A stretch of DNA of 31,975 nt, from assembly GCA_038042445.1 (NCBI GenBank), contig JBBTED010000122.1, positions 1-31,975 of the forward strand. The letters run 5' to 3'. Both the position numbers and the translations under genes were made by a program. Below are positions 10,756 to 30,051 of the stretch, in pieces. Numbering within the stretch: the first letter of the stretch is position 1; each line of letters opens with the position of its first letter. The notes under the pieces are model-generated. The model ran no database searches, was not told the origin of the DNA, and saw only the letters and a program-made list of their open reading frames with translations. This DNA is from Candidatus Firestoneibacteriota bacterium (lineage in GTDB: Bacteria; Oederibacteriota; D2-FULL-39-29; JBBTED01).

Positions 10756-10808
10756 AATTTTTTAACTATGGTTTGTTTTCTTCCACCAAACCATAATATC
10801 ATCTCCTT
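10756..10808 (-). other. MVWWK element copy 2: SD-led uORF MVWWKKTNHS* inside a hairpin
   Basis: AAGGAG (10808-10803), 8 nt, then ATG GTT TGG TGG AAG AAA ACA AAC CAT AGT TAA (10794-10762) AAA ATT ATG of the isomerase. Stem TATGGTTTG/CAAACCATA. Confidence 0.7.
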
Positions 10809-10817
10809 TAATAATTT

Positions 10818-12014
10818 TTAAAACACTTTGTTTTTAAAATTTCTTGAAACATCTGGTATTTTTATTAAACGATTCCCATTCCTTATAGATTCTGTTGCTG
10901 CACAAGCAACTGCAACACTCATTCTGCCCGCTAACGGAGTAGATATAGGTTTTTTTCCTGTAAGTATCATATCTACAAAATCTTTACATATAATTGGATC
11001 TGCACCCCCATGTCCACCAACAGCAGGCTTAACAGAATAAACTTGGTCAGCAAGATTTTTCCACCGTTTAGAACGATCCCTTGTTTTAACAATCACCTTA
11101 TCTGAATCATCTAAATTTTCCATTCTTCCCTCTGTACCAATAAATGTATAATTCCTACAATAATCAGGTGTCCAGTGACATTGCATATAAGTAACTTTTA
11201 TTCCACCTTCAAGTTCCATCATTACTGTGCTATTATCTTCCACATCTATTTCTTGCCTAAACACACACATATCCATTTTATTTACTCTATTTATATCAGT
11301 CTCATCATAATTAAACTCTATACAATTATTCTTTTCAAAACAGTTAGGGCAACGTAAAGTGTTAGGTTTTTTGCCACCATAGTAATCAAGACTTCCAGAT
11401 GCAATTACTTTCTTTGTGTATCGCCCTGTAATCCAGTGAATCATATCAATATCATGTGATGCCTTTTGCAATAGCAAACTTGTAGTGTTTTTGCTGTTTC
11501 CATGCCAATCATGATAATACCAGTCTCCGCCTCTTCCTACAAAATGCCTTACCCAGACAATCTTAATCTCACCTAAAACACCTGAATCTACAATATCTTT
11601 CATTACCCGAAAAATATTCATATATCGCATATTAAATCCTATCATAAAATGTTTACCTGATTTTTGCCATGCATTAAGTAATTTATCACAACCTTGTGTA
11701 GTAATTGCCATAGGTTTTTCACAAAATACATGTTTTCCTGATTTAAATGCTTCCATTACATATTCTTCATGTGTCCAATCCGGACTCGTAACAACAACAG
11801 CATCCATATCTTTAACTTTGAAAAATTCTTTAATATCCTGAGTAACAAAAACATCAGAACCTATAGATTTTTTAAATTGTATAAGAGCATCTTCATTAGT
11901 ATCCATACCTGCAACAACAACTGATTCACCTTGTGGCTTATGCCAATGTTCAGCTAATTTCCCTCTTCCTGTAACTCCTATTACGCCTATTTTAACCTGC
12001 TTTTGAGTAATCAT
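10818..12014 (-). CDS. Gfo/Idh/MocA family oxidoreductase (YteT-like)
   Basis: GVIGVTGRG, TSPDWTH, CEKP, GFNMRY, LLQKASHDID, GGHGGAD. Confidence 0.9.
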   Translation of the reverse strand: MITQKQVKIGVIGVTGRGKLAEHWHKPQGESVVVAGMDTNEDALIQFKKSIGSDVFVTQDIKEFFKVKDMDAVVVTSPDWTHEEYVMEAFKSGKHVFCEKPMAITTQGCDKLLNAWQKSGKHFMIGFNMRYMNIFRVMKDIVDSGVLGEIKIVWVRHFVGRGGDWYYHDWHGNSKNTTSLLLQKASHDIDMIHWITGRYTKKVIASGSLDYYGGKKPNTLRCPNCFEKNNCIEFNYDETDINRVNKMDMCVFRQEIDVEDNSTVMMELEGGIKVTYMQCHWTPDYCRNYTFIGTEGRMENLDDSDKVIVKTRDRSKRWKNLADQVYSVKPAVGGHGGADPIICKDFVDMILTGKKPISTPLAGRMSVAVACAATESIRNGNRLIKIPDVSRNFKNKVF

Positions 12015-12024
12015 ATATTTTCCT

Positions 12025-12501
12025 TTATATTGATACTAATTTCACTTTTTTCTTAAGTTCTTCTAATTGTGTAGTAGTTAATTTCTTTTCTGTAAGAGGG
12101 AAAAAAATATCGTCTTCATATTTGGCATGAATTATTAAAAGTTCAATGACATCCATAGAAATTTCTATAAACTTCTCACGTTTTGTTTTGTCATTAAAAT
12201 TTAAATTGTCTAACAAATTATTGAATTGTTGAATTTTTTTAAAAATTTTTTTATGGTCATCAAGGATTTTTGTAATTACACGCTTTGCATTTTTATCTAA
12301 ATTAGAAGGTAATATTGAAATAAGTATTTCCTCACTCTGAAAATGCAATAGTAAGTTTTTGTTAAAAAAATCGTTTATGTTAATAACATCTTCAGTAATA
12401 TCTTTATTATCTATATGCAAGAGGATTTGTTCTAAGAAGTATAGTTTTTCTTTTACTTCTGTATGTATTTGACAAATAGTAAAAATTATATCATTTTTCA
12501 T
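12025..12501 (-). CDS. Hemerythrin HHE-domain protein
   Basis: H...HFQSEE...DH...HAKYEDDIFFP helical pattern. Confidence 0.75.
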   Translation of the reverse strand: MKNDIIFTICQIHTEVKEKLYFLEQILLHIDNKDITEDVININDFFNKNLLLHFQSEEILISILPSNLDKNAKRVITKILDDHKKIFKKIQQFNNLLDNLNFNDKTKREKFIEISMDVIELLIIHAKYEDDIFFPLTEKKLTTTQLEELKKKVKLVSI

Positions 12502-12729
12502 TTATTTGCAGGTACTGCAATTATGCGAAGTACAACCACCACAACTATGTGAACTACTTGATAAAGAAACAGTTTGTGATGAAGATTTAAATCCAAAAAT
12601 AGAAAACAATTTATCTACTTTAAAGCTTTTGCATTTTGGACACTTTATACCTTTACCAATTTCAGAAAAGTTTAATAATACCTCAAATTTATTTCTGCAT
12701 TTTTTACATTCAAATTCATAAACCGGCAT
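12502..12729 (-). CDS. FmdB-family zinc-ribbon protein
   Basis: MPVYEFECKKC...FE...CPKC...KLFS, Cys-rich tail CGGC...CSTC. Confidence 0.9.
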   Translation of the reverse strand: MPVYEFECKKCRNKFEVLLNFSEIGKGIKCPKCKSFKVDKLFSIFGFKSSSQTVSLSSSSHSCGGCTSHNCSTCK

Positions 12730-13659
12730 TTATTTTAGTATAAATTGTAGCATCGGACTACGCTGAAAATCAAATCCTATAGTTTCACCAAAATAACTGG
12801 ATAAATAATCTTTCAAAGTAACACGTTTTTTTTCTGTTATAACGTCTGGTTTCCCTTCTATTCCTACAAGTTTTGCAGTTTCCTCAATTGCATCATTCAA
12901 ATCCCCTAATTCATCAACAAGACCTAAATTAAGTGCCTGACGTCCGGACAAAATCCTGCCATCTGAAAAACTTTTAATTTTTATTTTGATATCATCTAAA
13001 GAAATTTTATCCATATTTGATTCTGCTTTCAATTTTTCCTTAAATACTTCTTTTCTTCCCTGTGCAATTGCTTCGATAAACTGTTCATACACATCATTTA
13101 TAACTTCTTTAAATAACTTTTGCTCTGCTTCAGTCATTTTCCTCATTGGAGAACCAGAGTCTTTATATTCTCCACTTTTTACAACTTCAAATTTTACACC
13201 TATTTTCTTTAGAAGTTCTTCCACATTTGGTATTTCCATTATAACTCCAATACTACCTGTTAATGTTCCGGGATTTGCATAAATTTTATCCGCAGCAGAT
13301 GCGATATAATAACCACCCGAAGCAGCAACACTACCCATTGAAACTACCACTTTCTTTTTATCTTTTTTTAGTTTGTTTATTGCATTGTAAATTTCCTGTG
13401 AAGCAGCTACACCACCACCAGGAGTATCTAAACGAACAACAACTGCTTTTATTCGTTTATCATCATTGTATTTCTCAAGAAGTGTTACTGTTTTACGTGA
13501 ATCATAAATCGGACCGTAAATTTCAACTAATGCAATTTTTTTTGGTACATAATCACTAAATTTGCCGGAAGTTTTTGTAAAAATCATTCTTGCAATATTT
13601 AATATTATCACCAATGCAATAACAATTAGAATTATTGTAGTTACTTTCTTCTTTTGCAT
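12730..13659 (-). CDS. sppA: Signal peptide peptidase SppA (36K type, S49)
   Basis: N-terminal TM, DTPGG, SMGSVAASGGYY, TGSIGV, GEYKD, GLVDELG; follows rpsA. Confidence 0.93.
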   Translation of the reverse strand: MQKKKVTTIILIVIALVIILNIARMIFTKTSGKFSDYVPKKIALVEIYGPIYDSRKTVTLLEKYNDDKRIKAVVVRLDTPGGGVAASQEIYNAINKLKKDKKKVVVSMGSVAASGGYYIASAADKIYANPGTLTGSIGVIMEIPNVEELLKKIGVKFEVVKSGEYKDSGSPMRKMTEAEQKLFKEVINDVYEQFIEAIAQGRKEVFKEKLKAESNMDKISLDDIKIKIKSFSDGRILSGRQALNLGLVDELGDLNDAIEETAKLVGIEGKPDVITEKKRVTLKDYLSSYFGETIGFDFQRSPMLQFILK

Positions 13660-13667
13660 TTTGAGTT

Positions 13668-13694
13668 GAGATCCTTCACTTTGTTCAGGATGAC
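13668..13694 (-). repeat. GTCAT-type palindromic repeat
   Basis: Minus strand GTCATCCTGAACAAAGTGAAGGATCTC; adjacent hairpin TGACCC-TTC-GGGTCA at 13691-13705. Confidence 0.6.
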
Positions 13695-13717
13695 CCTTCG
13701 GGTCAATTTTCCTGTGT

Positions 13718-15343
13718 TTACTGTGAAAGTGCTTTAATACTTAACCCAATTTTTCTTCGTTCTGGTTCAATCTTTATTATTTTAGCAGTAACTTCATCAT
13801 CAATTTTAAAACAATCCTCTATTTTTTCAGGAGCTATTTCTTTTATTTCTGATATATGAAGTAACCCTTCTATTTCCCCACCTAAATCAACAAAAGCACC
13901 AAACTTGCTAAGTCGTACAACTTTACCTGTAATTACCTGTCCAACTTTAAATTTTTCTTCAACTATTTTCCAGGGATCGGGTTGTAACTGCTTAAGCCCA
14001 AGTGATAATTTTCGTGCATTTTTATCAACCTCAAGTACAAGTACTTCCACTTTTTCACCTTTTTTCAAAACTTCATTTGGATGTTTTATTTTATTCGTCC
14101 ATGACATATCAGATACGTGTAATAAACCTTCTATTCCATTTTCTATCTCTATGAAAACACCAAAATCTGCAAAACTTGTAACTGCCCCTTTAACTACACT
14201 CCCGAGAGGACAAATTTGTTCAACAGTGCTCCATGGATCAGACTCCAATTGCCGCATACTCAATGATATTTTCTTTTCATTTTTGTCTATGTTCAACACC
14301 GAAGCTTCTACAGTATCTCCAATCGCCAATATTTCTGACGGATGTTTTGGCCTTTTAGTCCATGACATTTCTGATATATGAACTAGACCTTCTATTCCTT
14401 CTTCTATTTTTACAAATACACCATAGTCCATAATATTAACAACTTTTCCCCGTATAACTGTATTCTGTGGATACTTTTTGTCAATATCAAGCCATGGGTC
14501 AGCTGTTTTTTGCTTTAACCCAAGTGAAATTTTCTTCTCATTGCGATCAACTTTCAGCACTAAAACCTCAATTTCATTACCAAGTGCTAACATTTCCGCT
14601 GGATGGTTAATATGTGTCCAAGACATATCACTAATATGTAATAATCCATCTGCACCACCCAAATCAATAAATGCACCGTATGTAGTAATATTTTTCACAA
14701 TTCCTTTTCTCAAATCATTTTCCTGAAGACTATTCCATATTTCAGTTTTAGCTTTTCTTTTTTCAGTTTCAACAACAATTTTATGTGATGCAATAATATT
14801 ATTTTTTAGAGGTGCAAATTTTATAATACGTACTGGAATTATCTTTCCAATTAAATCCTGTAGATTTTTGCCTTCTTCCAATGCAACTTGTGACCCAGGC
14901 AAAAAAACCTCAATACCAACATCTACAATTAAACCACCTTTTACCTGTCTTGATACTTTAGCACTTAAAGTTTCTTTTTCATCATACGCTTTAGAAATTG
15001 CATCTATATTTCTCTTTCTATCTGCTTTGAATTTAGATAATATTAAAGCCCCTTCTTCATCTTCTTTCTTTTCAAGAAAAACTTCAATTTTATCACCAAT
15101 TTTAACATCTAATTGTCCGTCTCTTGTTGAAAACTCACGTATTGGAACTATACCTTCAGATTTATATCCAATATCAATAAATACTTCTTCTTTACCAATA
15201 TGCACAACAGTACCTTTTACCAATGATTTTTCTTCAAAGGTATTAAGACTTTTGTAAATTTCATCCATACTAAATATTGTTTCTTTTTCTGTATCCACCT
15301 CCTTTGTTGAAACATTTACGTTTTCCTGATTTACTAATGACAT
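13718..15343 (-). CDS. rpsA: 30S ribosomal protein S1
   Basis: Six S1 repeats (DIGYKSEG, FLPGSQ, GLLHISDMSW, GLVHISEMSW, GLLHVSDMSW, GLLHISE). Start moved to ATG 15343, which follows AAGGAGG, rather than TTG 15409 inside ispH. Confidence 0.96.
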   Translation of the reverse strand: MSLVNQENVNVSTKEVDTEKETIFSMDEIYKSLNTFEEKSLVKGTVVHIGKEEVFIDIGYKSEGIVPIREFSTRDGQLDVKIGDKIEVFLEKKEDEEGALILSKFKADRKRNIDAISKAYDEKETLSAKVSRQVKGGLIVDVGIEVFLPGSQVALEEGKNLQDLIGKIIPVRIIKFAPLKNNIIASHKIVVETEKRKAKTEIWNSLQENDLRKGIVKNITTYGAFIDLGGADGLLHISDMSWTHINHPAEMLALGNEIEVLVLKVDRNEKKISLGLKQKTADPWLDIDKKYPQNTVIRGKVVNIMDYGVFVKIEEGIEGLVHISEMSWTKRPKHPSEILAIGDTVEASVLNIDKNEKKISLSMRQLESDPWSTVEQICPLGSVVKGAVTSFADFGVFIEIENGIEGLLHVSDMSWTNKIKHPNEVLKKGEKVEVLVLEVDKNARKLSLGLKQLQPDPWKIVEEKFKVGQVITGKVVRLSKFGAFVDLGGEIEGLLHISEIKEIAPEKIEDCFKIDDEVTAKIIKIEPERRKIGLSIKALSQ

Positions 15344-15363
15344 ATATAAATCATCCTCCTTGT

Positions 15364-16200
15364 TTATCTTAAATTCTGAATTCTTTTTACCACTTCCTGT
15401 ATTATCCAATCGGGTGTTGATGTTCCAGCAGTTATTCCTACCTTTTTTTTATCAATAAACCACTTGCTTTTTAATTCGCCAGCTTCTTCAATGTGATGAG
15501 TTTCAGCACCAGACTCAAAACAAACTTTTGCTAAATTTTTAGTATTTGCGCTATTTTTTCCACCAATTACAATCATTATATCAACTTCCTTAGACATTTT
15601 CAAGGAAAACTTTTGCGAAATTGCAGTTGCATTACATATAGTATTATAAATTTTCAATTCAGAAGTTTTCTTTAGAAGTTTTGCAACAATCATTTGAAAT
15701 TTTCCAAATGAAAGTGTTGTTTGAACTACTACTCCTACTTTTTTTAATTTGGGTAATCGTTCAACTTCTTCCTCAGTATTCACAGTTATTGCATTCTTTC
15801 CTGCATATCCAAGAAGAGCCTTTACTTCAGGATGTTTTTCTTCACCGATTATAACTATATTATAGTTTTCATTTTTAAGATTTTGCACAAGTTGCTGAGA
15901 ACGTTTAACTATTGAACAAGTAGCATCAACTATTTTAAGATTTCGTTTTACCAATATTTCACGAATATCAGGTGAGATTCCATGAGCTGCAACAATAATT
16001 GTTCCTCTTGTAACATCCAAAGGATTTTTTACAATTTTAACATTTTCTTTAGCAAGTTTATCAACAACCTGTGGATTATGTATTATTGGACCAGCGGTAT
16101 ACACAGGTTCATTTTTAAAATTTACAGCATTAAATGCCATATCAACTGCTCTTTTTACACCTGCACAAAACCCTGCTCCTTTTGCAATATAAATTTTCAT
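15364..16200 (-). CDS. ispH: 4-hydroxy-3-methylbut-2-enyl diphosphate reductase
   Basis: GFCAGV, IIHN, AHG, DATC, HPEV, QTT, TICNAT, SANT, TAGTSTP. Confidence 0.95.
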   Translation of the reverse strand: MKIYIAKGAGFCAGVKRAVDMAFNAVNFKNEPVYTAGPIIHNPQVVDKLAKENVKIVKNPLDVTRGTIIVAAHGISPDIREILVKRNLKIVDATCSIVKRSQQLVQNLKNENYNIVIIGEEKHPEVKALLGYAGKNAITVNTEEEVERLPKLKKVGVVVQTTLSFGKFQMIVAKLLKKTSELKIYNTICNATAISQKFSLKMSKEVDIMIVIGGKNSANTKNLAKVCFESGAETHHIEEAGELKSKWFIDKKKVGITAGTSTPDWIIQEVVKRIQNLR

Positions 16201-17027
16201 ATCTGATTTTTTACTAATTGTTTAATACTATGTATGTATTTTTCAGCTTCTAATTCTCCAATTCTAATCAATTTTTTCACTTTTGTAAAATCCAGTATTC
16301 TGTATGACATTACATCTGGCTGTATTACTATATCAGCACCTTTACAACTTACCAATGCCATCTCTCTTTCTACAATTTCCATAGCTTTAACTATTACAGA
16401 AATTGCACTTGGCATTCTTTTGTAAGTAAATATTTTAGCTGAATTATTTTTATTAAAACAAGTGATAACATTTGAAGCTATAATTTTATTTGCACCCATT
16501 TCTTTTAAAACATTCACTGGAACAGGTTCTACAAATCCACCATCTATAAGAATTTGTTTTGAATAGCGAACTGGTTCAAATATGCCAGGCAAAGATATAC
16601 TTGCTCTAACAGCTTCAGATACAGAACCTTTTGTAATTATAACAGGACATCCTGATGATAAATCCATAGCAACAACTGCAAGAGGAATTTTAAGCTCGGA
16701 AAAATCTCTATCTCCCATTATTGATTCCAAATAAGAAATTACACGTTTTCCAGATAGAAGTCCAGAACGTGAAATACTAAAATCCATAATAGATAAAATT
16801 TTTGATTTTTTTCGAAATTCCAATACAAACTTTTCTATACTACTTGCAGAAATTCCAGAAGCCCATATTGCTCCTAAGTATGCACCTATACTTGTCCCTG
16901 CAATAAAATCTATTTTAATGTTTTCTCTTTCTAAAACTTTAAGCACTCCAATATGTGCTAAACCGTGCGCACTTCCACTACTTAGTGCAAGACCAATTTT
17001 ATTTTTGTTGAAATTTTTCATTTGCAT
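16197..17027 (-). CDS. Patatin-like phospholipase (RssA/NTE type)
   Basis: LALSSGSAHGLAHIG, GTSIG nucleophile motif, ASISLPG, DGG. Confidence 0.92.
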   Translation of the reverse strand: MQMKNFNKNKIGLALSSGSAHGLAHIGVLKVLERENIKIDFIAGTSIGAYLGAIWASGISASSIEKFVLEFRKKSKILSIMDFSISRSGLLSGKRVISYLESIMGDRDFSELKIPLAVVAMDLSSGCPVIITKGSVSEAVRASISLPGIFEPVRYSKQILIDGGFVEPVPVNVLKEMGANKIIASNVITCFNKNNSAKIFTYKRMPSAISVIVKAMEIVEREMALVSCKGADIVIQPDVMSYRILDFTKVKKLIRIGELEAEKYIHSIKQLVKNQI

Positions 17028-18040
17028 CCGAAAGAACTTCTTGGATTCTCCTGACGTTTTGCCAATTCTTTAAATAATTTTTTTTCATTTTCAGATAAAT
17101 TTGTTGGCAAAACAACTTTTATTTTGACTATTTCGTCTCCTTTATTTCCCTTTTGAAAAGGTAAACCTAATCCACGCAAACGAAAAACAGCACCATTTTG
17201 TGTTTCTGGAGGAATTTTCATTTTAGCTTTACCCTTTATTGTTGGAACTTCTATTTCTGCACCTAAAGTCATTTCTGACAAAGTTACAGGAATTTCAGCA
17301 AGCAAGTTATTCTCCTTAACTTCAAATATTGGATGCACGTTTAATTTAACCTGTAGATACAAATCACCGGGTGGATTTCCTATTCCACCCTGGCCTGTCA
17401 ATCTTATTTTTGAACCTTCATGTATTCCTGCTGGGATTTTTATCCGCAATTTTCGAGTTTGAACAGTCAAACCTCTTCCATCACAATTATTACATATCGC
17501 ATTTCGTATAACCCCTGTTCCATTACAAATTGAACAATTCTGATGAAAACCTATTTCAATTGATTTTTCCGCACCAAAATATATTTCTTCCAGAGTAACA
17601 TCAATTGCTGTTGTCACATCCTGACCTTTAACTCTTGGTATCCCTGCTCCAAATCCATGCCTTTGATTGCTATGTTCATGCTCAGCCATCATATCTCCAA
17701 AAATTGTTTTGAAAAAATCTGAAAAACTCCCTGCATCCTCCTGCCCAAAATCAAAAGACGTATTAAACCTTTCACCTTTTCTGCGAAATTCTGCACCTTG
17801 TCCTTGTGCAAAACGTGAAAAATCATCTGTACCAAGTGTTTCATATCTTGTTCTTTTCTGTGGATCAGATAAAACTTCATAAGCCTCATTTATTTCCTTA
17901 AATTTTTCTTCTGCACGTTTATTACCGGGATTCAAATCCGGATGAAATTTTCTCGCAAGCTTTCTATACGCCTGTTTTATTACAGTTTCATCTGCCTTTT
18001 TATCCACACCCAATACTTTATAATAATCTTTGTATTCCAT
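17018..18040 (-). CDS. DnaJ/CbpA-class co-chaperone with a reduced zinc finger
   Basis: Start MEYKDYY at 18040 rather than 18109; HPD J-domain, G/F region, FSDFF, two CxxCxGxG motifs, DnaJ C-terminal domains. Confidence 0.92.
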   Translation of the reverse strand: MEYKDYYKVLGVDKKADETVIKQAYRKLARKFHPDLNPGNKRAEEKFKEINEAYEVLSDPQKRTRYETLGTDDFSRFAQGQGAEFRRKGERFNTSFDFGQEDAGSFSDFFKTIFGDMMAEHEHSNQRHGFGAGIPRVKGQDVTTAIDVTLEEIYFGAEKSIEIGFHQNCSICNGTGVIRNAICNNCDGRGLTVQTRKLRIKIPAGIHEGSKIRLTGQGGIGNPPGDLYLQVKLNVHPIFEVKENNLLAEIPVTLSEMTLGAEIEVPTIKGKAKMKIPPETQNGAVFRLRGLGLPFQKGNKGDEIVKIKVVLPTNLSENEKKLFKELAKRQENPRSSFGCK

Positions 18041-18055
18041 AGTTTTTATATTGAA

Positions 18056-18084
18056 AGTATAACAAAAAAATCTAAATCTCTCAA
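18056..18084 (-). promoter_or_regulatory. sigma70 promoter of the dnaJ-like gene and the long minus-strand run
   Basis: TTGAGA-17 nt-TATACT with a TGn extension, 15 nt before ATG 18040. Confidence 0.65.
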
Positions 18085-18182
18085 GGAATTTGTTTGTATG
18101 AATAAACAAATGTTGTTTGGTTCATAACGAATTGAATAGAAATGGGATTGAGGAGAAAATTAAACTCCACTAAACTCATGCC

Positions 18183-18210
18183 TTGACAAGTGTCTAATTT
18201 TTGATATTAT
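18183..18210 (+). promoter_or_regulatory. sigma70 promoter of the glycoside hydrolase gene
   Basis: TTGACA-16 nt-TATTAT with a TGn extension. Confidence 0.6.
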
Positions 18211-18271
18211 ACGCATAATAAGTTAGCCATAATAAATAACACCATAAGCAATAAGATTAAAAAGGAAAATT

Positions 18272-19966: not shown

Positions 19967-20003
19967 TCACTATATCTATTTTTTCCAAAGAGATGTATGA
20001 GTA

Positions 20004-20807
20004 TTAGATATGTATGTGTGCATCTAACCAATTGATTATATCTGTCATAACTATTGATTTTTCTGGTTCATTAAGAATTTCATGATAAAAACCTTCATAT
20101 AGTTTTAAAACTTTATCTTGCGAATTTGCACGGCTATAAATTTCTTTACTGCCTTTAACATTTGCTATTTTATCATCTGTGCCATGTAAAATAAGAAGTG
20201 GTAATGCAATAGTTTCCATCTGAGACTGTATGGATTTTATAGCACGAATAATTTCTACTCCTTCTCGTGCTTTCATAGAACCGTGATAAATCAAAGGATC
20301 TTTTTCATACTGTTTTACCACTTCTGGATCACGTGAAAGCAAATGGTTATTCAATCTTTTCTCAACTGGCAAAGATGGGAAAATAGTACTGATTATAAAT
20401 GCCAATCTTACTTTTAATAATGAAACATTCTCATCAAGCATTAAGTAGGCACCACTTAAAATCAATCCGTTTATAACAGGTTTTCTTGTGATAGTAAAAA
20501 GTGTAGAAATAGCACCACCCAAACTGTGTCCTAATAAAAATATAGGTAATCCTGGTTTAGATTTTTGAACATCTGAAAGAATATCTTCAACATCCATTAT
20601 ATATTCATCAAAAGATTTGATTAAGGTGCGAGGACCTTCAGAACGGCCATGTCCGCGTAAATCAAAAGTATAACAAGCATAATTATGCGTGTTAAAATAT
20701 TCAACGACAGAAGAATATCTGCCACTATGTTCACCATAACCATGAACTATAATAATAACTGCCTTAGGTTTGCCTTCAGGAAGCCACCATTGCCTAAAGA
20801 GATACAT
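20004..20807 (-). CDS. Alpha/beta hydrolase, lysophospholipase/monoacylglycerol lipase family
   Basis: HGYGEH, DLRGHGRS, GHSLG, HGTDD, HEILNE. Start is uncertain: TTG 20837 lies inside a repeat, so ATG 20807 is preferred. Confidence 0.88.
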   Translation of the reverse strand: MYLFRQWWLPEGKPKAVIIIVHGYGEHSGRYSSVVEYFNTHNYACYTFDLRGHGRSEGPRTLIKSFDEYIMDVEDILSDVQKSKPGLPIFLLGHSLGGAISTLFTITRKPVINGLILSGAYLMLDENVSLLKVRLAFIISTIFPSLPVEKRLNNHLLSRDPEVVKQYEKDPLIYHGSMKAREGVEIIRAIKSIQSQMETIALPLLILHGTDDKIANVKGSKEIYSRANSQDKVLKLYEGFYHEILNEPEKSIVMTDIINWLDAHIHI

Positions 20808-20818
20808 AATAGATTTGC

Positions 20819-20843
20819 GATTCTGAAACAAATTCAAAATGAC
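20819..20843 (-). repeat. GTCAT-type palindromic repeat
   Basis: Minus strand GTCATTTTGAATTTGTTTCAGAATC aligns without gaps to GTCATGCTGAATTCATTTCAGCATC at 27544. Confidence 0.65.
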
Positions 20844-20854
20844 AGATTAATGAT

Positions 20855-20874
20855 GCCGATAAATCGGCAACTAT
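20855..20874. repeat. GTAG-type REP, single arm
   Basis: GCCGATAAATCGGCAACTA is identical to the right arms of the copies at 25991 and 28445; terminal base is changed. Confidence 0.8.
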
Positions 20875-20877
20875 AGA

Positions 20878-22566: not shown

Positions 22567-22574
22567 TGTTAAAA

Positions 22575-22605
22575 TCCCCCTCTTTCCCCCTTTTTAAAAG
22601 GGGGA
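22575..22605. repeat. CCCCCTCT-N-CCCCCTT...AAGGGGG palindromic repeat
   Basis: TCCCCCTCTT followed by perfect hairpin TCCCCCTTTT-T-AAAAGGGGGA; on the minus strand GAGGGGG sits in the SD position of the dehydrogenase. Confidence 0.6.
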
Positions 22606-22610
22606 TAAAC

Positions 22611-24728
22611 TCAGTAAAACTTCTTATTTTGCTTTGCCATATTGATTAGCAAATTTGAAACTTTAAATCTTTCACCATAGCTTGTGTAAAAGATTTCCAG
22701 TTTATTTACTATATTATTAATACCTGTCTCATCAGCATACCGTAACAAACCTCCTAAAAATGGTGGAAAACCTGTTCCCATAATCATACCTATATCAATA
22801 TCTGATGGTTCATTTGTTACACCTTCTTCAAGAGCTTTTGCAGCTTCATTTATCATTGTGTATATCATACGGTTTAATATTTCCTCTTTGGATAACTGTT
22901 TAAACTTTTCCCTGTCAAGCATATTATAAATTTTCAGATTTGGAATTTTTCTTTTTCCGGAATGAATATAAAATCCTTTTTTTGTTTTTTTACCGTATAG
23001 TTTTAGTTCATAAACTTTCTCCAATATAGATGCAACTTTCATTCGGTCCCCAAAAGCATTTTCAAGAATTTTAAAAACTTTATATCCCACATCTATACCC
23101 ACTTCATCTGCAACTGCCAAAGGTCCCATTGGCATACCGAAATCTATCATTATTTTATCAATCACATCAATTTTTATACCTTCTTCCAAAAAATACGCGG
23201 CTTCATTCATATAAGGAAGCAGTATTCTGTTAACCAAAAATCCACAAGAGTCATTTACCACTATTGGCATTTTACCTAACTGCCGAGTAAAATTAACTGT
23301 TGTAATTATTGTCTCATCACTAGTCTTTTTGCCTTTGATAATTTCAACCAATGGCATTTTATGAACAGGATTAAAAAAGTGCATACCAATAAAATTAGCA
23401 GGATTTTTCAAGCCCTCGCCCATTTCTGTTATGGAAAGAGAAGAAGTATTAGAAGCAATAATGGTCTTATCCGAAAGATGATTTTGCAATTCATTAAAAA
23501 GCTTCTTTTTAAAATTTATATCTTCTATAATTGCCTCAATAACAAAATCTGTATTTTTAAAACCTGTATATTCTATTGCCCCTGATATAAGACTCATTTT
23601 AAAGTTGGCATCATTTGGTTTTAATTTTTTATGTTTGACTGCATTTTTAAAAACTTTATATGCCTGTTGCAAACCTTTAAGTATAGACTCGTGATTTATA
23701 TCTTTCATTCTCACAGTGATATTATGATATGCAATAAGCTGACTAATACCGCCTCCCATAGCACCAGCACCAATTACTCCACAACTGTTAATTTTTAACG
23801 GCCGGACATCTTTGTTTGAAACACCAGTTATCTTCCTATACTTTTCTGTAAGATAGAAAACATTTATTAAATTTTTGCAGACATTTGTTATTACAAGTTT
23901 ACCTAATCCCTTTGATTCAAATTGTAATGCGATTTCCTTTTTGCATTTATACCCTTTTTTGATAACTTCTAAAGCAACAAGAGGAGCAGGATAATGATTC
24001 TTTGTCTGCTTTAGAATAACTTTTTTTACCTGATTGAAAAGAATATACCTGCCAATAAAAGTGTTTTCCAAAAATTTTTCAATGATGGATAATTTCCTTT
24101 TCTTACGGATACAATTTTTTAGCAGAATTCCATTTAAAAATTTAATTGTTTCAGAAATAAGAATTTTTTGCGGGTACAATTTATCAACTAATCCTATTTT
24201 TAAAGCATTCTGCGATGATATGGTTTTACCTGTTAGTATTAAATCCAGTGCAGTTTTTAACCCTACAAGTTTTGGCAGGCGATAAGTTCCGCCAAATCCC
24301 GGAAGTATACCAAGTTGCACTTCAGGAAGACCTAATCTTATTTTTTCATTAAAACTTGCAGTTCTATACTTGCATGCTAAAACAAGTTCCAAGCCCCCGC
24401 CCAAAACAGTGCCATCAATTGCAGCAATTGTTGGAACAGCAAATGACTCAAGTTTGTCAAATATTTTTTGCCCTAAAATGGATTTATTTTCACCATCTGA
24501 AATAGCTGTTATATTTTCAATTTCTTTTATATCAGCACCTGCAATAAAAATATTTTCTTTTTTGCTTGCAATTATTATTCCTTTTACATTTTTTCCTGAT
24601 AACTCATCAAGTATATGTTCAAATTCAGTAATTGTTTGTGCATTTAGAATATTTACCTTTGAATCCGGAGTATCAAATTCAATAAATGCAATTTCCTGTT
24701 CAATTCTTAATTTAACTGAGTTATCCAT
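22611..24728 (-). CDS. fadJ: Fatty-acid oxidation complex alpha subunit (enoyl-CoA hydratase / 3-hydroxyacyl-CoA dehydrogenase)
   Basis: FIAGADI, GGGLE, LPEVQLG, GAGAMG, ASNTSS, GMHFFNPV.KMPLVE, GFLVNR, GTGFPPFLGG. Confidence 0.9.
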   Translation of the reverse strand: MDNSVKLRIEQEIAFIEFDTPDSKVNILNAQTITEFEHILDELSGKNVKGIIIASKKENIFIAGADIKEIENITAISDGENKSILGQKIFDKLESFAVPTIAAIDGTVLGGGLELVLACKYRTASFNEKIRLGLPEVQLGILPGFGGTYRLPKLVGLKTALDLILTGKTISSQNALKIGLVDKLYPQKILISETIKFLNGILLKNCIRKKRKLSIIEKFLENTFIGRYILFNQVKKVILKQTKNHYPAPLVALEVIKKGYKCKKEIALQFESKGLGKLVITNVCKNLINVFYLTEKYRKITGVSNKDVRPLKINSCGVIGAGAMGGGISQLIAYHNITVRMKDINHESILKGLQQAYKVFKNAVKHKKLKPNDANFKMSLISGAIEYTGFKNTDFVIEAIIEDINFKKKLFNELQNHLSDKTIIASNTSSLSITEMGEGLKNPANFIGMHFFNPVHKMPLVEIIKGKKTSDETIITTVNFTRQLGKMPIVVNDSCGFLVNRILLPYMNEAAYFLEEGIKIDVIDKIMIDFGMPMGPLAVADEVGIDVGYKVFKILENAFGDRMKVASILEKVYELKLYGKKTKKGFYIHSGKRKIPNLKIYNMLDREKFKQLSKEEILNRMIYTMINEAAKALEEGVTNEPSDIDIGMIMGTGFPPFLGGLLRYADETGINNIVNKLEIFYTSYGERFKVSNLLINMAKQNKKFY

Positions 24729-24732
24729 TTTT

Positions 24733-25977
24733 TTATCTCTCTAAAATTAATGCAGTGCCTTGACCACCGCCAATACATAATGATACTAAACCAGTTTTTA
24801 AATCCCTTCTTTTCATTTCTTTAAGTATAGTTAAAATCAATCTTGCACCTGTAGCACCTACAGGATGGCCTAATGCTATTGCACCGCCATTGACATTTAG
24901 CAATTCAGGATTTATCTGACCAACACCATTTGAAATTAGCAATCTTTCACAGGCAATAACTTGTGATGCAAATGCTTCATTTATTTCTATCAATTGTATA
25001 TCTTTTAAATTCAAACCGGATTTTTTTAATACATCTTGTATTGCATAAGCAGGACCTAATCCCATCCTCATAGGATCCAAACCAATATAACTGTAATATT
25101 TTAAATAACCTAATGGAGTAAACCCTAATTCTTTTGCTTTTGATTCCTTCATCACAAGTAATGCAACAGCCCCATCTGTAACCTGACAGGAATTGCCAAC
25201 TGTAACTGTCCCAGTACGATAATCAAAATATGGACGTAATTTTCCCAATCCTTCTAAAGTCTGATTTTCCCTTGGTCCATTATCACAGTCAATGTATGTT
25301 TTATATTCAGGAGATAGATACACTGACACAATCTCTTCTTTCAATTTTGTACGTCCCTGAACTGCTTTCTGGTAACTGCTCAATGAAAATTCATCCTGCT
25401 CTTGTCTTGTTATACCAAATTCTTTTGCCAGAATTTCTGCGGTTTGCCCCATATTAAGTCCGCAGACAATATCAGTTAGACCCAGAACCAGACTCAATTT
25501 TGGTTTAAAGTGTTTGGGACGAAATTTTAATAAAGTTTGGACTTTAGCAACTATGCTTTTACTTTTCTTAAATTCTAAAAGCAACTCAGCAAATTTCTTG
25601 TCGAACAAAAGCGGTGTATTACTCATTGATTCAGTTCCACCTGCAATTACAATTTCACATCTGCCGGATAAAATTTTTTCATAAGCAGTAGTTACAGCTT
25701 CCATTCCTGAGGCACAATTTCTGTGAACAGTAGAAGCAATTTTATCCTGAGGAATACCACTAAATAATGAAATTACTCTGCTGATATTAACAGCTTCAAC
25801 TGGCTGTATCACATTACCAAAGATAACTTCATCAACTTGTGCTGGAGCAAACTCCGTTTTTGCCAATAATTCCTGAACAACTATTTTGCCTAATTCGTAA
25901 GCAGGAATATCTTTTAAAATAGTTCCTGCTTTTACAAAAGGCGTCCTAACTCCATCAACAATAGCTAATCTTTCCAT
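24733..25977 (-). CDS. fadI: 3-ketoacyl-CoA thiolase (FadI/FadA type)
   Basis: RTPF, NCASG, GGTESMS, NEAFA, GAIALGHPVGATG, CIGGGQG; adjacent to fadJ. Confidence 0.85.
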   Translation of the reverse strand: MERLAIVDGVRTPFVKAGTILKDIPAYELGKIVVQELLAKTEFAPAQVDEVIFGNVIQPVEAVNISRVISLFSGIPQDKIASTVHRNCASGMEAVTTAYEKILSGRCEIVIAGGTESMSNTPLLFDKKFAELLLEFKKSKSIVAKVQTLLKFRPKHFKPKLSLVLGLTDIVCGLNMGQTAEILAKEFGITRQEQDEFSLSSYQKAVQGRTKLKEEIVSVYLSPEYKTYIDCDNGPRENQTLEGLGKLRPYFDYRTGTVTVGNSCQVTDGAVALLVMKESKAKELGFTPLGYLKYYSYIGLDPMRMGLGPAYAIQDVLKKSGLNLKDIQLIEINEAFASQVIACERLLISNGVGQINPELLNVNGGAIALGHPVGATGARLILTILKEMKRRDLKTGLVSLCIGGGQGTALILER

Positions 25978-25990
25978 ATTTTTTTAATTT

Positions 25991-26039
25991 GTAGTTGCTG
26001 ATTTATCAACTATTTTTTTGCCGATAAATCGGCAACTAC
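25991..26039. repeat. GTAG-type REP doublet
   Basis: GTAG TT GCTGATTTATCAAC ... GCCGATAAATCGGC AA CTAC. Confidence 0.85.
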
Positions 26040-26044
26040 ATTTT

Positions 26045-27526
26045 TTATTTTGCCTGTCTTTTATCAATTATTCGTTTTTCTTTGAGAGCAGTATCTAATT
26101 CCAATTTTTCTATCATCTGCTCTAAACTTATAATAACAACATCATTTAATGATACTTCTGTTTCAGTCAAAATTTTATCACTTATCTCTTTTTTAAATTT
26201 TTCCGTATTGGTGTCTGGCTTAATACTACAGCATAAAATAAGTTCATCAACATCAAACTGGTCATTGTCTTTTTTCCGTATCTCTAATTGCCATTCTGTT
26301 ATTTCAATTGCTGCAGCCAGAACTTCTGAAAGATTGTTTAAATCAACAACTGTGCCTTTAATTTTTGATAAATCCAGATTTTTTATCTCTGATACACGTC
26401 CTATTCTTGAAGAAATACGCGGAACAGTTCTACCGCAATACTTACAAGGTTCATAAGAAATTCCTCCTTCAATTAAATCACCTGTGCGATATCTAAAAAC
26501 ACAGGAGCCACGTGCATCTATGCTTGTATAAACAAGTTCACCTGATTCGTTTTCTTTTTTCACTTCACCAGTTTTTGGGTTTATAATTTCAAATATTTCT
26601 TTGTCTGGTGATGTATGATAACCACTAAATGTTTCTAAATCTGTAGGACATTCAGCCCATGCACATCTTGCTTCTGTAAAACCATAAGTACCAAATATTT
26701 TTACTTCCTTGGCACCTGCTTGTTCCAAAAGATCAGCAAGCTTTGTCTTAAAACCCTGTGGCACATAAGATGCTCCCAAAACTATTCTTTTAATAAAATC
26801 TAACTTATAATTATCGCATACTGCTTTTCTAATTAAATGATACACATATCCGGGAACGCCTATTACAAGTTCAGGTTTGAGTTTCATCATTAACCGAATA
26901 TTACCTTCAGTTCCCATTACTTTTCCGCCACCAGTGCTTAAAACCAGAATATTATAACTTAATCCTCCAAAAACTGTTTGCCAGAAAGCCAAATGTGGTG
27001 CATAAGGAAATAAATTTATACCTTTTGTTCTTTTTTTAAGATCAAATACTTCTATTAATCTATGTCCTGAAATGTATAAATTGTTTATATCATACATAGT
27101 GTATAAGAAAGATGTTGGTATAGCTGACCTACCTGTAGTTGAAGTAACAAATATAGGATTATATTCCAATTCCAATGACTCAACAATTTTTGCATTATTT
27201 AATATTTTTTTAACACCTAAACTTACCAATTTTGTTAACGGCCAATATTTTTTTATAAGATTTTCATCAGGATGAAGCAAAAACTTTAAAGTTTTTGCAG
27301 GATCTGCATCAGTAGGTAGTAAATCTAATTTACTTGTAAACGGAATATTATGCAAATCACTAACAGTTTTGATTTTTTTTGGGTCAATTTTATTTTTATC
27401 AAAAAGTTCGTGATAATAAGGACTAAAAGGATAAAGCTGATTTTGCAAGAAATCTTGCAATTTTTTTTCTTGCAAGCATTTTAATTTCCTCCAAGGGGTA
27501 CGATCTAATTTATTCCATCCTTTCAT
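26045..27526 (-). CDS. PaaK-like (phenylacetate-CoA ligase family) adenylate-forming enzyme
   Basis: SPYY, L.NIPFTSK.DL, STTGRSA.P (variant P-loop), YGFTE, GELVYT, RYRTGD; SD GAGGAG. Confidence 0.8.
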   Translation of the reverse strand: MKGWNKLDRTPWRKLKCLQEKKLQDFLQNQLYPFSPYYHELFDKNKIDPKKIKTVSDLHNIPFTSKLDLLPTDADPAKTLKFLLHPDENLIKKYWPLTKLVSLGVKKILNNAKIVESLELEYNPIFVTSTTGRSAIPTSFLYTMYDINNLYISGHRLIEVFDLKKRTKGINLFPYAPHLAFWQTVFGGLSYNILVLSTGGGKVMGTEGNIRLMMKLKPELVIGVPGYVYHLIRKAVCDNYKLDFIKRIVLGASYVPQGFKTKLADLLEQAGAKEVKIFGTYGFTEARCAWAECPTDLETFSGYHTSPDKEIFEIINPKTGEVKKENESGELVYTSIDARGSCVFRYRTGDLIEGGISYEPCKYCGRTVPRISSRIGRVSEIKNLDLSKIKGTVVDLNNLSEVLAAAIEITEWQLEIRKKDNDQFDVDELILCCSIKPDTNTEKFKKEISDKILTETEVSLNDVVIISLEQMIEKLELDTALKEKRIIDKRQAK

Positions 27527-27543
27527 AATATTCTCCTCAAATT

Positions 27544-27569
27544 GTCATGCTGAATTCATTTCAGCATCT
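27544..27569 (+). repeat. GTCAT-type palindromic repeat
   Basis: GTC ATGCTGAA ttcat TTCAGCAT CT; contains the TGA stop (27556-27558) of the thioesterase. Confidence 0.65.
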
Positions 27570-28035
27570 TTTCCTTAAAATATTTCACCCGTACTTCTCT
27601 TCTTTTTATTGCATTTGCACTTTTTGTTTTTTCCTCTTTTGTACGCAAAATTAATCGTGGCACTTCAATAGGTCTGCCATTATCATCCAATGCAACCATA
27701 GTAAGATATCCTGAACCTACAAATAATTTTTCCCCGGTTTTTAATCTTTCTGTTTCCACTTTAACTTCAACTTCCATCGAGCTTTTACCAACATAACACA
27801 AATTAGCAAATAAAGTTAAAATATCACCTACATGAACATGATTTTTAAAAGTAATATGGTCCATTGAAGCTACAACAACATTTTTTTGTGAATGACGGGT
27901 AGCAGCAACAAATGCTGCTTCGTCTATTAATTTAAGAATTGTTCCACCATGGACATAACCATAATGATTGGCATATAAAGGCATCATCACTTCAGCCAAC
28001 ACAGTAGCAGATTTAGAAACTGTTTTACCTTGCAT
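27556..28035 (-). CDS. Acyl-CoA thioesterase (hotdog fold, YciA-like)
   Basis: ANHYGYVHGG.ILKLIDE, VVASMD, VGKSSMEV, MVALD..GRP. ATG 28035 preferred over GTG 28068. Confidence 0.9.
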   Translation of the reverse strand: MQGKTVSKSATVLAEVMMPLYANHYGYVHGGTILKLIDEAAFVAATRHSQKNVVVASMDHITFKNHVHVGDILTLFANLCYVGKSSMEVEVKVETERLKTGEKLFVGSGYLTMVALDDNGRPIEVPRLILRTKEEKTKSANAIKRREVRVKYFKEKMLK

Positions 28036-28073
28036 AATCAGATAAGTTATACAGCAAAACTTTTCCACCTATT

Positions 28074-28424
28074 TGGTGGAGGCGGCGGGAGTCGAACCCG
28101 CGTCCAAAAGTGCGTCAGAACAGGCATACTACATACATATCCTTTGATTTAAATTTCGCATTATCCATCTCCCAAAGGCAGGATATGGCTAACACTATCT
28201 TGATAACGCTTCATCCTCTTTCCCTCAAGCGAAAAAAAGAGGACTATCCTGTTAAGCCGACTTTTGAAATTTTACAGGCAAAATTTCAAAAGCTTGACTG
28301 TGTTTAAGCAGCCAATGCTAACTGTTCGTCAGCGATTAAAATTTTTCCACTTGTTTTACGAGATAATGGAACCTCGGTATGCAGCCTGAACCTCAATCAC
28401 CCCTGTCGAAGCCCTTACGCCCCC
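28074..28424 (-). ncRNA. ssrA: tmRNA; tag peptide (A)ADEQLALAA
   Basis: 5' GGGGGCG...TTCGAC; 3' GCGGG-TTCGACT-CCCGC-CGCCTCC-ACCA with G3:U70; tag ORF GCT GAC GAA CAG TTA GCA TTG GCT GCT TAA at 28333-28304; downstream of smpB. Confidence 0.97.
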
Positions 28425-28444
28425 ATTGAAAATCCAAAATTTCT

Positions 28445-28494
28445 GCAGTTACTGATTTATCAGATGCTTTTTTTGCCGATAAATCGGCAACTAC
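28445..28494. repeat. GTAG-type REP doublet
   Basis: GCAG TT ACTGATTTATCAGA ... GCCGATAAATCGGC AA CTAC; CTA 28491-28493 is the smpB stop. Confidence 0.85.
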
Positions 28495-28928
28495 ATTTTA
28501 TGTCTTGATTCGCGGTCAAGGTCTCGTTTTTTTATTTGCTCGCGTTTATCGTATTGTTTTTTGCCACGTACCAATGCAAGCTCAAGTTTAATTCTATTGT
28601 CTTTAGCATACAACTTAGTAACTACTAATGTCAAGCCCTTCTGAGTAACCTTACCAATAAGACGTTTTATTTCTTCTTTATGTAATAATAATTTGCGAGT
28701 TCTCAAAGGAGCAACGTTGTATATATTCCCATAATCATAAGGTGTAATGTGCATATTAAACACAAATAATTCACCCTTATCAAATCTGCCAAAGCTATCT
28801 CTTAAGTTCGCTTTGCCTGCACGAATAGATTTAACCTCAGTCCCTTTAAGAACTATGCCTGCTTCGTAAGTCTCAAGAATTTCATAATCATAGAAAGCTT
28901 TGCGATTTGCTGCAAGTTGTTTAATCAT
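28491..28928 (-). CDS. smpB: SsrA-binding protein
   Basis: [36 protein letters not shown]. Confidence 0.97.
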
Positions 28929-28936
28929 AGTATATG

Positions 28937-28965
28937 ATAATATTCGAAAAATTAGGTTATTTCAA
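28937..28965 (-). promoter_or_regulatory. sigma70 promoter of smpB (near-leaderless)
   Basis: TTGAAA-17 nt-TATTAT, 8 nt before the ATG; no SD. Confidence 0.65.
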
Positions 28966-28994
28966 GAGGAAAAATGTAGCAATTTCCAAAAATA

Positions 28995-29357
28995 TCACAA
29001 TGACATACGAAGCCCAAATTGTTTATGTCGTAAATCCACAATATATTTATTTAGTTCTGCACGATTATCCTCAGATAAATTTTCAAAATGAACACCAACA
29101 AATGCAAAATGCTGTTCTGCAATAGTTTGAGTTCTAACTATTTCACCTTTTAATTCACCAAATTGAGGTCCATCCGGCATTTTGAAAGAAATAGACACAG
29201 GCATATCAATTTCAAGTGACTCTTTTGCTATAATTCCAATCCCAGTAGCACTTATATTTGTAATTACACCCTTAATTAAATGAGCACCAGTATTAAGAGG
29301 CATTATACTCACTTCTGTAATAACTGATATTCTTACAAATTTTCTTCTTTCAGGCAT
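28995..29357 (-). CDS. PilZ-domain protein
   Basis: ERRKFVR and NISATG motifs, GVHF strand; SD AGGAGG. Confidence 0.9.
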   Translation of the reverse strand: MPERRKFVRISVITEVSIMPLNTGAHLIKGVITNISATGIGIIAKESLEIDMPVSISFKMPDGPQFGELKGEIVRTQTIAEQHFAFVGVHFENLSEDNRAELNKYIVDLRHKQFGLRMSL

Positions 29358-29435
29358 AATTCCCTCCTAAACTTGTATCTTGTATTTCGTAAGTTAAAGT
29401 CATTTACTTCATCTTTTACTTTAGGTTTTACTTCT

Positions 29436-29987
29436 TTAACGAGGTAGAGTTATATTCTGCTGTGCCTGATATTTGCCTTTTTTATCAGCATAAGATGTTT
29501 CACATATTTCATCACTTTCAAGAAATATAAGTTGAGCTATACCTTCATTTGCATATATTTTTACCGGCACAGGTGAAGTATTTGAAATCTCTAAAGTTGC
29601 ATATCCCTCCCATTCAGGCTCAAAAGGCGTAACATTCACAACAACTCCACACCTTGCATAAGTAGATTTTCCAAAACATATTGTTATCACACTTCTTGGT
29701 ATTTTAAAATATTCAACAGTACGTGCAAGAACATATGAATTAGGCGGTATAATACAAACATCACATTTGACATCTTCCATTAATTTTAAATCAAAATTTT
29801 TAGGGTCGATAATTTTATTTTCTTTTGAATGAAATATTTTGAACTCATTAGAAATTCGAATATCATATCCATAAGAAGACAATCCGTAAGAAATTACTCC
29901 GGTTTTAACTTGCTTCTCTTCAAATGGCACAATCATCTTTTCCTCACGTGCCATTTTTTTTATCCACTTATCAGATTTAACAGACAT
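29436..29987 (-). CDS. dcd: dCTP deaminase
   Basis: [47 protein letters not shown]. Confidence 0.96.
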
Positions 29988-30051
29988 AATTTTTTACTAT
30001 GGTCTTGCGCTTAAAGGAAATGGTGGAACCATATTTTTCCACCAGACCATA
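29988..30051 (-). other. MVWWK element copy 3: uORF MVWWKNMVPPFPLSARP* inside a hairpin
   Basis: ATG 30050 ... CCA TAG TAA AAA ATT ATG(dcd). Nested stems TATGGTC/GACCATA and TGGTGGAA/TTCCACCA. Confidence 0.7.

Follow-up and report, generated by a model that had tools for sequence, protein, structure and literature searches.

The stretch of DNA analyzed here, referred to as the window, is contig C122 (31,975 nucleotides) of the assembly of a Candidatus Firestoneibacteriota bacterium, which comprises 2.81 Mb in 181 contigs with 31.9% G+C and is 90% complete. On its minus strand, a D-lyxose isomerase gene and a dcd gene, encoding a dCTP deaminase-like protein, are each preceded without any gap by one copy of a small hairpin repeat, here called a unit (Table 1). 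A sequence-only reading of the window had described a repeated element consisting of a hairpin and a small upstream open reading frame (uORF) directly before these two genes, and this description was confirmed when the sequence was read directly. The two mini-ORFs, MVWWKKTNHS followed by one stop codon and MVWWKNMVPPFPLSARP followed by two, are in frame with the respective gene and end in the sequence TAA AAA ATT ATG. As that reading had also stated, the strong Shine-Dalgarno (SD) motif at the isomerase serves the uORF, and neither the isomerase gene nor dcd has an SD of its own. The third copy that it reported is present as a lone 5′ arm.

The 15-mer TATGGTYTGGTGGAA matches the window three times (1067-1081, 10781-10795, and 30037-30051), always on the minus strand, and a count of three was reached in none of 100 shuffles of the window (shuffle mean 0.14). 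The stem of copy 1 consists of nine perfect base pairs, while copy 2 forms a two-level hairpin whose outer arms are those of copy 1 except for GTCT/AGAC in place of GTTT/AAAC. The predicted folds of both full copies are more stable than those of shuffled sequences (z = -4.1 and -2.95); in both, neither the tail nor the AUG of the gene is paired, whereas the solo arm gives no significant fold (z = +0.4). When copy 1 is excised from the sequence, the arrangement GGAG-N8-ATG is given back to the isomerase, which would then represent the ancestral state of this start site.

Genome-wide, the three copies of the window belong to a family of 75 units, which were collected with an nhmmer profile iterated to convergence; the core motif has 30 occurrences in the genome. 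The units are organized in 68 arrays, of which 62 are single, 5 are double, and 1 is triple, at 67 loci, since the locus before rpmA, encoding ribosomal protein L27, is split across two contigs. The end of C179 and the start of C7 break within the same unit there and differ in one base. The repeat fragments the assembly at this position, where the population may be polymorphic. The unit has the layout (T)TATGGTYYG, a loop starting with GTG(G/A)A, CRRACCATA, and a tail ending in AAAAAATT, that is, a 9-bp hairpin stem (TATGGTYYG...CRRACCATA; four of the nine pairs G-C, start TTATGG) followed by an A-rich tail. Sixty-one units are short (39-41 nt) and 13 are long (about 64 nt), the latter with an additional inner hairpin. 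Subfamilies differ in stem and tail, which change together: GGTCTG/CAGACC with the tail GTTAAAAAATT or AACAAAAAATT, GGTTTG/CAAACC, AGTCCG/CGGACC with ATA as the first codon and the tail AATAGAAAATT, and a type C, whose stem is weakened and whose tail is AAGGGAAAAAATT. A small sister family at six loci ends likewise in AAGGGAAAAAATT-ATG and has another stem, TATGCTGTG...ACAGCATA. SD-like AAGGGA motifs are contained in the type C and D tails. Searching the genome with a general regular expression for further families with the same tail yielded nothing useful.

The exchange of GTTT/AAAC for GTCT/AGAC in the two arms, which the sequence-only reading had taken as covariation, holds across the units of the genome. 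Two of the nine stem pairs covary (C-G in 30 and T-A in 19 units at one; T-A in 37 and C-G in 10 at the other), and on average 8.15 of the nine stem positions are paired, compared with 7.63 after shuffling of the arms among copies (maximum 7.87 in 1000 shuffles). The covariation separates three subfamilies, so it may reflect only two events.

In 41 of the 68 arrays, a start codon opening an ORF of at least 60 codons lies within -3 to +4 nt of the array end. After dropping C75, a false call located inside a gene, and the duplicated C7/C179 locus, about 39 of the 67 loci are start-docked. At three further loci the ATG is reached via a unit of the sister family, and at four others the unit is situated 8-15 nt upstream of the ATG, with an SD in between in three of them. 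Random orientation relative to genes, which the sequence-only reading had named as an outcome that would refute a regulatory role, was not observed, as the next downstream gene is encoded on the strand of the unit for 63 of 65 arrays. A GC-skew test showed that the locally G-rich strand carries the units in 44/49 cases and the genes in 1523/1712, and an orientation directed by replication is thus inseparable from one directed by the genes. Among the downstream proteins (38 scanned, C75 dropped), the NCBIfam profile starts at residues 1-9 in 25/37, and the ATG after the unit is therefore the true gene start.

According to NCBIfam, the downstream genes encode ribosomal proteins, including L3, L6, L22, L27, and S5, but also RuvA, RuvX, NifS/IscS, ThrC, BCCP, ThiC, YchF, FtsW, RodA, WecB, RimP, AtpG (ATP synthase gamma), AhbA, and several regulators. 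They are functionally unrelated, many of them are housekeeping genes, and none of those listed is a tryptophan (Trp) gene. A tRNA-Ser gene follows one unit after 2 nt on the same strand, another unit adjoins the 3′ end of a convergent tRNA-Met gene, and several lie loose in spacers. An upstream ORF of at least 80 codons on the same strand ends between -63 and +55 nt around the first codon of the unit in 25 of the 39 docked arrays.

That the units are insertions is seen most directly where they interrupt genes. Seven units are located within long ORFs, all seven in gene orientation and in a stop-free frame, and each adds 13 residues. Six of the seven are read as L-W-(S/F)-G-E-(K/R)-R-Q-T-I-x-x-K-L, while the unit in MurF is read in another frame, in which its TAG has been changed to TTG. 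In the methionyl-tRNA formyltransferase Fmt, a 13-residue insert relative to the structures PDB 4iqf and 3tqq coincides exactly with the unit, and the 13 corresponding alignment columns hold at most five residues in each of the 119 best homologues drawn from 5.8 billion proteins. In a HEAT-like repeat protein, the repeats measure 32, 31, 44, 31, and 32 residues, the surplus of 13 residues being the unit, and in MurF the unit lies within a 20-residue insert relative to 4qdi. Arrays moreover combine subfamilies; the array before rplF in C115 consists of a GGTCTG unit, a type C unit, and an AGTCCG unit, and therefore arose by repeated insertion rather than by local duplication. On the minus strand of C21, before a NifS-like gene (31166-32314), a repetitive extragenic palindromic (REP) sequence of the GTAG type, GTAGGGCAAGGCTTTAGCCTTGC..., is nested in the loop of a unit beside a second, long unit. 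From this nesting, the periods of activity of both repeat types must have overlapped.

Outside the arrays, the left flank carries an A at each of six bases in 35-53 of 67 copies, then (T/A)T, giving the logo AAAA(A/T)T directly before the insertion point, and the right flank reads A (57/67), T (46/67), and G (40/67). The direct repeat common to the left flank and the tail varies between 1 and 10 nt (ATTATG at the isomerase copy, TTATGG at L27, CAAAGAATTA in the HEAT-like gene), and therefore there is no target duplication of fixed length. Insertion looks to have taken place 3′ of a sequence resembling the element's own 3′ end. With ATG(G) at its start and AAATT at its end, a unit recreates the target on both sides at each insertion, and arrays of mixed subfamilies can therefore build up.

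The arms of the unit are perfect inverted repeats that start and end with TA, and in no fewer than two copies that are not at start codons, C86 and C74, TA is retained at the reconstructed original junction. These features would suit a MITE (miniature inverted-repeat transposable element) of the IS630/Tc1-mariner type, in which the 29-nt palindrome TATGG...CCATA would provide the terminal inverted repeats, TA would be duplicated at the target, and a DDE transposase would move the element. An IS630/mariner-like MITE, with 15-bp inverted repeats and TA ends, had been put forward in the sequence-only reading, and the part of it that came closest to the evidence is the notion of a small mobile repeat at TTATG start contexts; its IS630/mariner traits did not hold. 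The conserved 11-nt tail follows the subfamily and makes the element asymmetric, the strand-specific and strictly polar orientation (63/65 arrays) is unexpected for an element with symmetric ends, and 29 nt is far below the usual size of a MITE. The lack of a fixed-length duplication also argues against it, and DDE_3 (PF13358) has no match in the genome, although with 90% completeness its absence is not thereby proven. We consider a MITE of this type very unlikely.

Our preferred interpretation, to which we assign a probability of about 0.6, is that the units are a small mobile repeat whose docking sites are start codons and whose build keeps it harmless at them. The element would be lineage-specific, non-autonomous, and probably selfish, and would consist of a strand-specific hairpin with an A-rich tail. 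Insertion would follow the direction of transcription and take place 3′ of an A-rich sequence ending in AAATT, mostly exactly between AAATT and the ATG of a gene. The decoy ATG duplicated in this way would be concealed in the 5′ arm of the stem, and the real ATG would be exposed in the unpaired A-rich tail, to which two subfamilies add the SD-like AAGGGA. A ribosome arriving from the old SD or from the upstream gene would meet a stop codon 6-12 nt before the real ATG, or an ATGA overlap, and could re-initiate. At the isomerase, L27, and C1 loci, where the old SD faces the decoy ATG, the stop 6 nt before the real ATG would permit re-initiation. Intragenic copies would persist only in stop-free frames.

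The layout of the units is compatible with such a route. Translational coupling declines with distance and is possible without an SD, according to the excerpts of PMC12548453. Of the three frames of the 74 units, the ATG frame is closed by a stop in 61 and the YGLV frame in 53; the LWSG frame is free of stops in 48. Mini-ORFs of the type MVWWKKTDHS-stop end 6-8 nt before the gene ATG, those reading MVW-stop or MV-stop end 25-32 nt before it in single units, three are in-frame fusions with the gene, and two overlap it. In seven of the 39 docked arrays the reading frame of the upstream gene ends within the unit or in an overlap with the gene ATG. An ATA-type head supplies the stop as TAG in two of them, 35 and 74 nt ahead of the gene ATG; in four the stop is a TAA located 6, 8, 10, and 11 nt before that ATG, and in one an ATGA overlap (-4) is formed after the upstream frame reads through the whole unit. 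The 74-nt spacer between rpsJ (C12:105-488) and rplC consists of two units only, the first of which supplies the TAG stop of S10. Without both units, the two genes would overlap by ATGA, which suggests that the ancestral state was an overlap; in the ten class-level relatives possessing both genes, the spacer measures 40-81 nt and mostly contains SD-like motifs.

In fold predictions for 38 docked units, the hairpin has a mean energy of -10.1 kcal/mol and the first codon of the unit is mostly paired (unpaired probability 0.16), whereas the -10 to +3 region of the gene is unpaired with a probability of 0.59, compared with 0.51 for 147 control genes. The genome is SD-poor, as an SD (at least 5 nt) lies before 22% of first-ATG starts versus 2.6% of controls, and its starts have an A-rich context with T at -1 in 51%. 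Because SDs are used sparingly and starts are A-rich, the unpaired A-rich tail corresponds to a normal start context in this organism. All of these considerations on translation derive from sequence and predicted folds.

The sequence-only reading had also considered a leader that couples translation or stalls ribosomes. The architecture of the units fits coupling, with stops situated 6-12 nt before the gene ATG or overlapping it, while stalling and the sensing of Trp find no support. Codons 3 and 4 are TGG-TGG, the tandem Trp codons seen after the ATG in the three copies of the window and the argument for a Trp-sensing leader or stalling attenuator, in 36 of 74 units, but they read xGG-TGA in 24. 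Twenty-one of the 74 units do not have ATG as their first codon (53 do), and the first codon, the peptide, the loop, and the stop position all vary between copies. This variation therefore rules out Trp sensing and a conserved peptide. No terminator/antiterminator or U-tract terminator follows the units, the genes behind them are unrelated, with no Trp gene among those listed, and no Rfam family matches. The related proposal that UGGUGGA pairs with the CCACCA ends of tRNA or transfer-messenger RNA (tmRNA) was rejected, as UGGUGGA is not conserved. We regard this whole group of explanations as next to impossible.

A more serious competitor, and the main rival of a mobile repeat, is a cis leader useful to the host, either a portable module for initiation or coupling or a site for a global RNA-binding regulator, kept for translation or mRNA processing. 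Units located precisely at start codons and nearly always oriented with the gene would be expected of it, and so would a stem kept by compensatory changes, stops in two frames just before the ATG with an ATGA overlap ending the third, the SD-like AAGGGA in the type C and D tails, and the presence of units in ribosomal-protein operons and before essential genes. It accounts poorly for the seven copies within coding regions, for the one 2 nt before tRNA-Ser, and for those loose in spacers, and the genes served are functionally unrelated. The variable first codon, peptide, loop, and stop position do not suit it either, nor do arrays of two or three different units, which follow no obvious regulatory logic. 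A useful leader would moreover be expected to be conserved together with its genes, but the family was not found in the other species genomes and metagenomes searched. We therefore judge it improbable that the units are kept for such a function.

Several observations weigh against the idea of a harmless repeat docking at start codons. No DNA-level empty site was found for any start-docked copy, and the searched collections contain no close relative. The uORF route is not general, as shown by the units lacking an ATG first codon, by the mini-ORFs that stop after two or three codons and thus 25-32 nt before the gene ATG (single units) in about one third of the docked ATG-headed arrays, and by an SD (at least 5 nt) before the unit in only about four docked arrays. 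Counted in its favor is that of the 14,282 free AAATT-R sites, with the insertion point before R, only 107 (0.75%) are start-like ATGs, compared with about 58% of loci docked. The purging of intragenic insertions accounts for part of this excess, and the remainder reflects either a longer target that includes the ATG or selection favoring docked copies; the strong preference for ATG over other AAATT-R sites could thus stem from selection or function rather than from targeting. Finally, neither a longer parent element sharing the ends of the units nor a dedicated transposase was found in the 90%-complete assembly, and all five Y1_Tnp (RAYT-like) genes are flanked by a GTAG-type, GC-rich REP family of their own, none by units.

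For a mobile start-docking repeat, a Y1/HUH transposase acting on single-stranded hairpins is our leading guess at the mobilizing enzyme, and a tentative one, because it would fit the polarity, the absent fixed duplication, and the end-like target. TnpB (PF07282) and IS110 models found no match in this assembly. Four small stand-alone GIY-YIG genes were considered as mobilizers and dismissed, as they are not linked to units and their neighbors are other repeats; two of the four are embedded among REP-like repeats of other families. Eight ORF6N paralogues were likewise not linked to units. These ORF6N-domain (KilA-N-like) proteins are 53-71% identical and are encoded in the window (3-515, minus strand, running off the contig end) and in C133, C136 (three copies), C71, C95, and C29. 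The genes next to the solo arm do not qualify as a transposase, since they encode PilZ and ORF6N proteins. The genome is unusually rich in REPs, with dozens of families of which the largest have 117, 92, and 69 copies by 14-mer count. Another 14-mer, GCGTGGATTGAAAC, occurs 43 times genome-wide and is probably the repeat of a CRISPR array.

Table 1. Units, adjoining genes, and other features, by position in the window (C122) or in the contig named.
Feature	Position	Strand	Remarks
Short unit (copy 1)	10756..10796	-	5′ arm TATGGTTTG 10795-10787, 11-nt loop, 3′ arm CAAACCATA 10775-10767
Tail of copy 1, GTTAAAAAATT	10766-10756	-	Sequence reading
Mini-ORF of copy 1 (ATG to TAA)	10794-10762	-	Sequence reading
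GGAG Shine-Dalgarno motif	10803..10806	-	8 nt 5′ of the ATG of copy 1, not of the isomerase ATG
D-lyxose isomerase gene	10072..10755	-	ATG 10755-10753 abuts copy 1; Pfam Lyx_isomer position 1 = residue 1
Long unit (copy 2)	29988..30052	-	Outer stem TATGGTCT / AGACCATA, inner stem GGTGGAA / TTCCACC, tail GTAAAAAATT
Mini-ORF of copy 2	30050-29997	-	Second stop directly after
dcd (dCTP deaminase-like) gene	29436..29987	-	ATG 29987-29985 abuts the long unit; Pfam DCD position 2 = residue 4
tRNA-Lys and tRNA-Glu genes	30070..30227	-	Long unit begins 18 nt past the tRNA-Glu 3′ end
Solo 5′ arm, remnant	1067..1081	-	Without 3′ arm and tail; PilZ and ORF6N genes next, no transposase
tmRNA gene	28074-28424	-	Tag peptide ADEQLALAA
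Y1_Tnp genes	C63:23806-24138, C59:5446-5694, C11:20047-20388, C63:8398-8664, C74:19487-19771
Stand-alone GIY-YIG genes	C21:4115-4333, C79:17162-17386, C63:19819-20040, C21:49678-49887		91-106 residues from first Met (open frames 92-112 aa)

The distribution of the family is narrow. A strict 29-nt pattern gave no match in 185,579 species genomes or in the JGI metagenomes, and a looser arm-gap-arm pattern gave 12 single matches in 12 unrelated genomes, which is the number expected by chance. One 15-mer was found in one of 40 relatives. The nearest relatives in the searched collections share only the class, with sequence identities of 49% for Fmt and about 45% for L3, and a close Fmt homologue without the insert, which would represent an empty allele at the DNA level, was not found among them. 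DNA of the organism is present in 11 sequencing runs from five groundwater studies, for which no RNA run is listed. In the contigs of four of these runs, the isomerase unit is unchanged in one run, other joints only reflect other copies of the unit, and no contig skips a unit. Empty sites, which the sequence-only reading had proposed to look for in relatives, were not seen in the assembled contigs examined. One contig of a relative that is about 96% identical stops matching at the isomerase ATG, an observation that we do not count as evidence. Our literature searches found no description of this repeat family.

The units appear to represent a second route, independent of MIRUs, the interspersed repetitive units of mycobacteria, by which tiny repeats colonize the most sensitive position of a gene without silencing it, even in ribosomal-protein operons. 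For annotation, they matter as a source of false upstream starts, false small ORFs, 13-residue protein inserts, and, as at L27, broken assemblies. Re-initiation, the masking of a decoy AUG by a hairpin, and initiation without an SD in a phylum poor in SDs could also be tested on their natural variants, since units differ in whether they have an ATG, a stop, or an SD-like tail, and in whether the stop comes early or late. Should an enzyme do the targeting, it would be a very precise tool for insertion directed to start codons. As a speculation that we hold to be rather doubtful, the units could belong to an unnamed general class of "start-codon-homing" mini-elements, perhaps present in many uncultured lineages and targeted via single-stranded transcribed DNA by a HUH-type enzyme. 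Such elements would carry a self-neutralizing cassette, composed of a stem-locked decoy AUG, stops in the entering frames, and an exposed A-rich or SD-bearing tail, and would act as a natural bicistronic coupler.

Among known systems, Rfam holds no family matching the units at gathering or permissive thresholds. A purine riboswitch match at the dcd copy reached 21.2 bits, against a gathering score of 37, and was not accepted, as units of this long form stand before many unrelated genes. A CsrA-type GGA loop site was discarded, as GGA is missing from the GTGA subfamilies. With REP and REPIN sequences, the units share that they are short, dispersed, palindromic hairpins in many copies, but they start with TTATGG instead of a GTAG head, are not GC-rich, and flank none of the five Y1 loci, and their place is the 5′ end of a gene and their orientation is fixed, whereas REPs are found mainly after 3′ ends. 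The units thus do not belong to the REP/RAYT system. Miniature elements derived from IS200/IS605, such as the palindrome-associated transposable elements (PATEs), are hairpin-based and strand-specific, create no fixed target duplication, and insert 3′ of a short sequence resembling their end. The units show the same hairpin, strand specificity, and lack of fixed duplication, and likewise appear to insert 3′ of a short sequence. They differ from PATEs in having one hairpin only, and neither a TnpA/TnpB partner nor an autonomous element with their ends was found.

As described in the excerpts of PMC10969869, the Rickettsia palindromic elements (RPEs) are repeats of about 150 bp, mostly intragenic, that are inserted in frame and add a peptide segment. 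The units resemble them in being palindromic and in their in-frame insertion into coding genes with an added peptide; compared with RPEs as portrayed there, only 7/67 unit loci are intragenic and the insert measures 13 residues. The Neisseria REP2 and Borrelia IR repeats, according to the excerpts of PMC3184786, are placed directly upstream of genes and supply the ribosome-binding site and/or the ATG, as the units do. REP2 as outlined in the same source is a larger repeat that comes with a promoter and identifies a co-regulated set of genes, whereas no regulon or promoter is evident for the units, for which promoters were not searched.

The closest likeness is to the MIRUs (Supply et al. 1997), which the excerpts of PMC12548453 and PMC3184786, summarizing that work, describe as repeats of 40-100 bp in 40-50 copies, located within operons, with ORFs overlapping their neighbors. 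Some differences are apparent in this comparison, which is one of descriptions. The units are AT-rich and built on one 9-bp hairpin and a tail, they place their stops 6-12 nt ahead of the ATG, and only one case shows the -4 overlap given for MIRUs in those excerpts. Many of them have no usable mini-ORF and thus rely less on an ORF of their own, some are inside genes, and their host belongs to an uncultured groundwater phylum. Yet as far as the excerpts go, both kinds of repeat fall into the 40-100-bp size class, occur in tens of copies between co-directional genes, often in tandem and in gene orientation, and appear to have been inserted at start codons. MIRUs are described as coupling a small ORF to the gene while barely disturbing its expression, and some units may do likewise, since stops precede the ATG by 6-12 nt in many of them, though 21 of 74 lack an ATG first codon and 24 stop at codon 4. 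By analogy, and without claiming membership, the units would work like MIRUs in functional terms.

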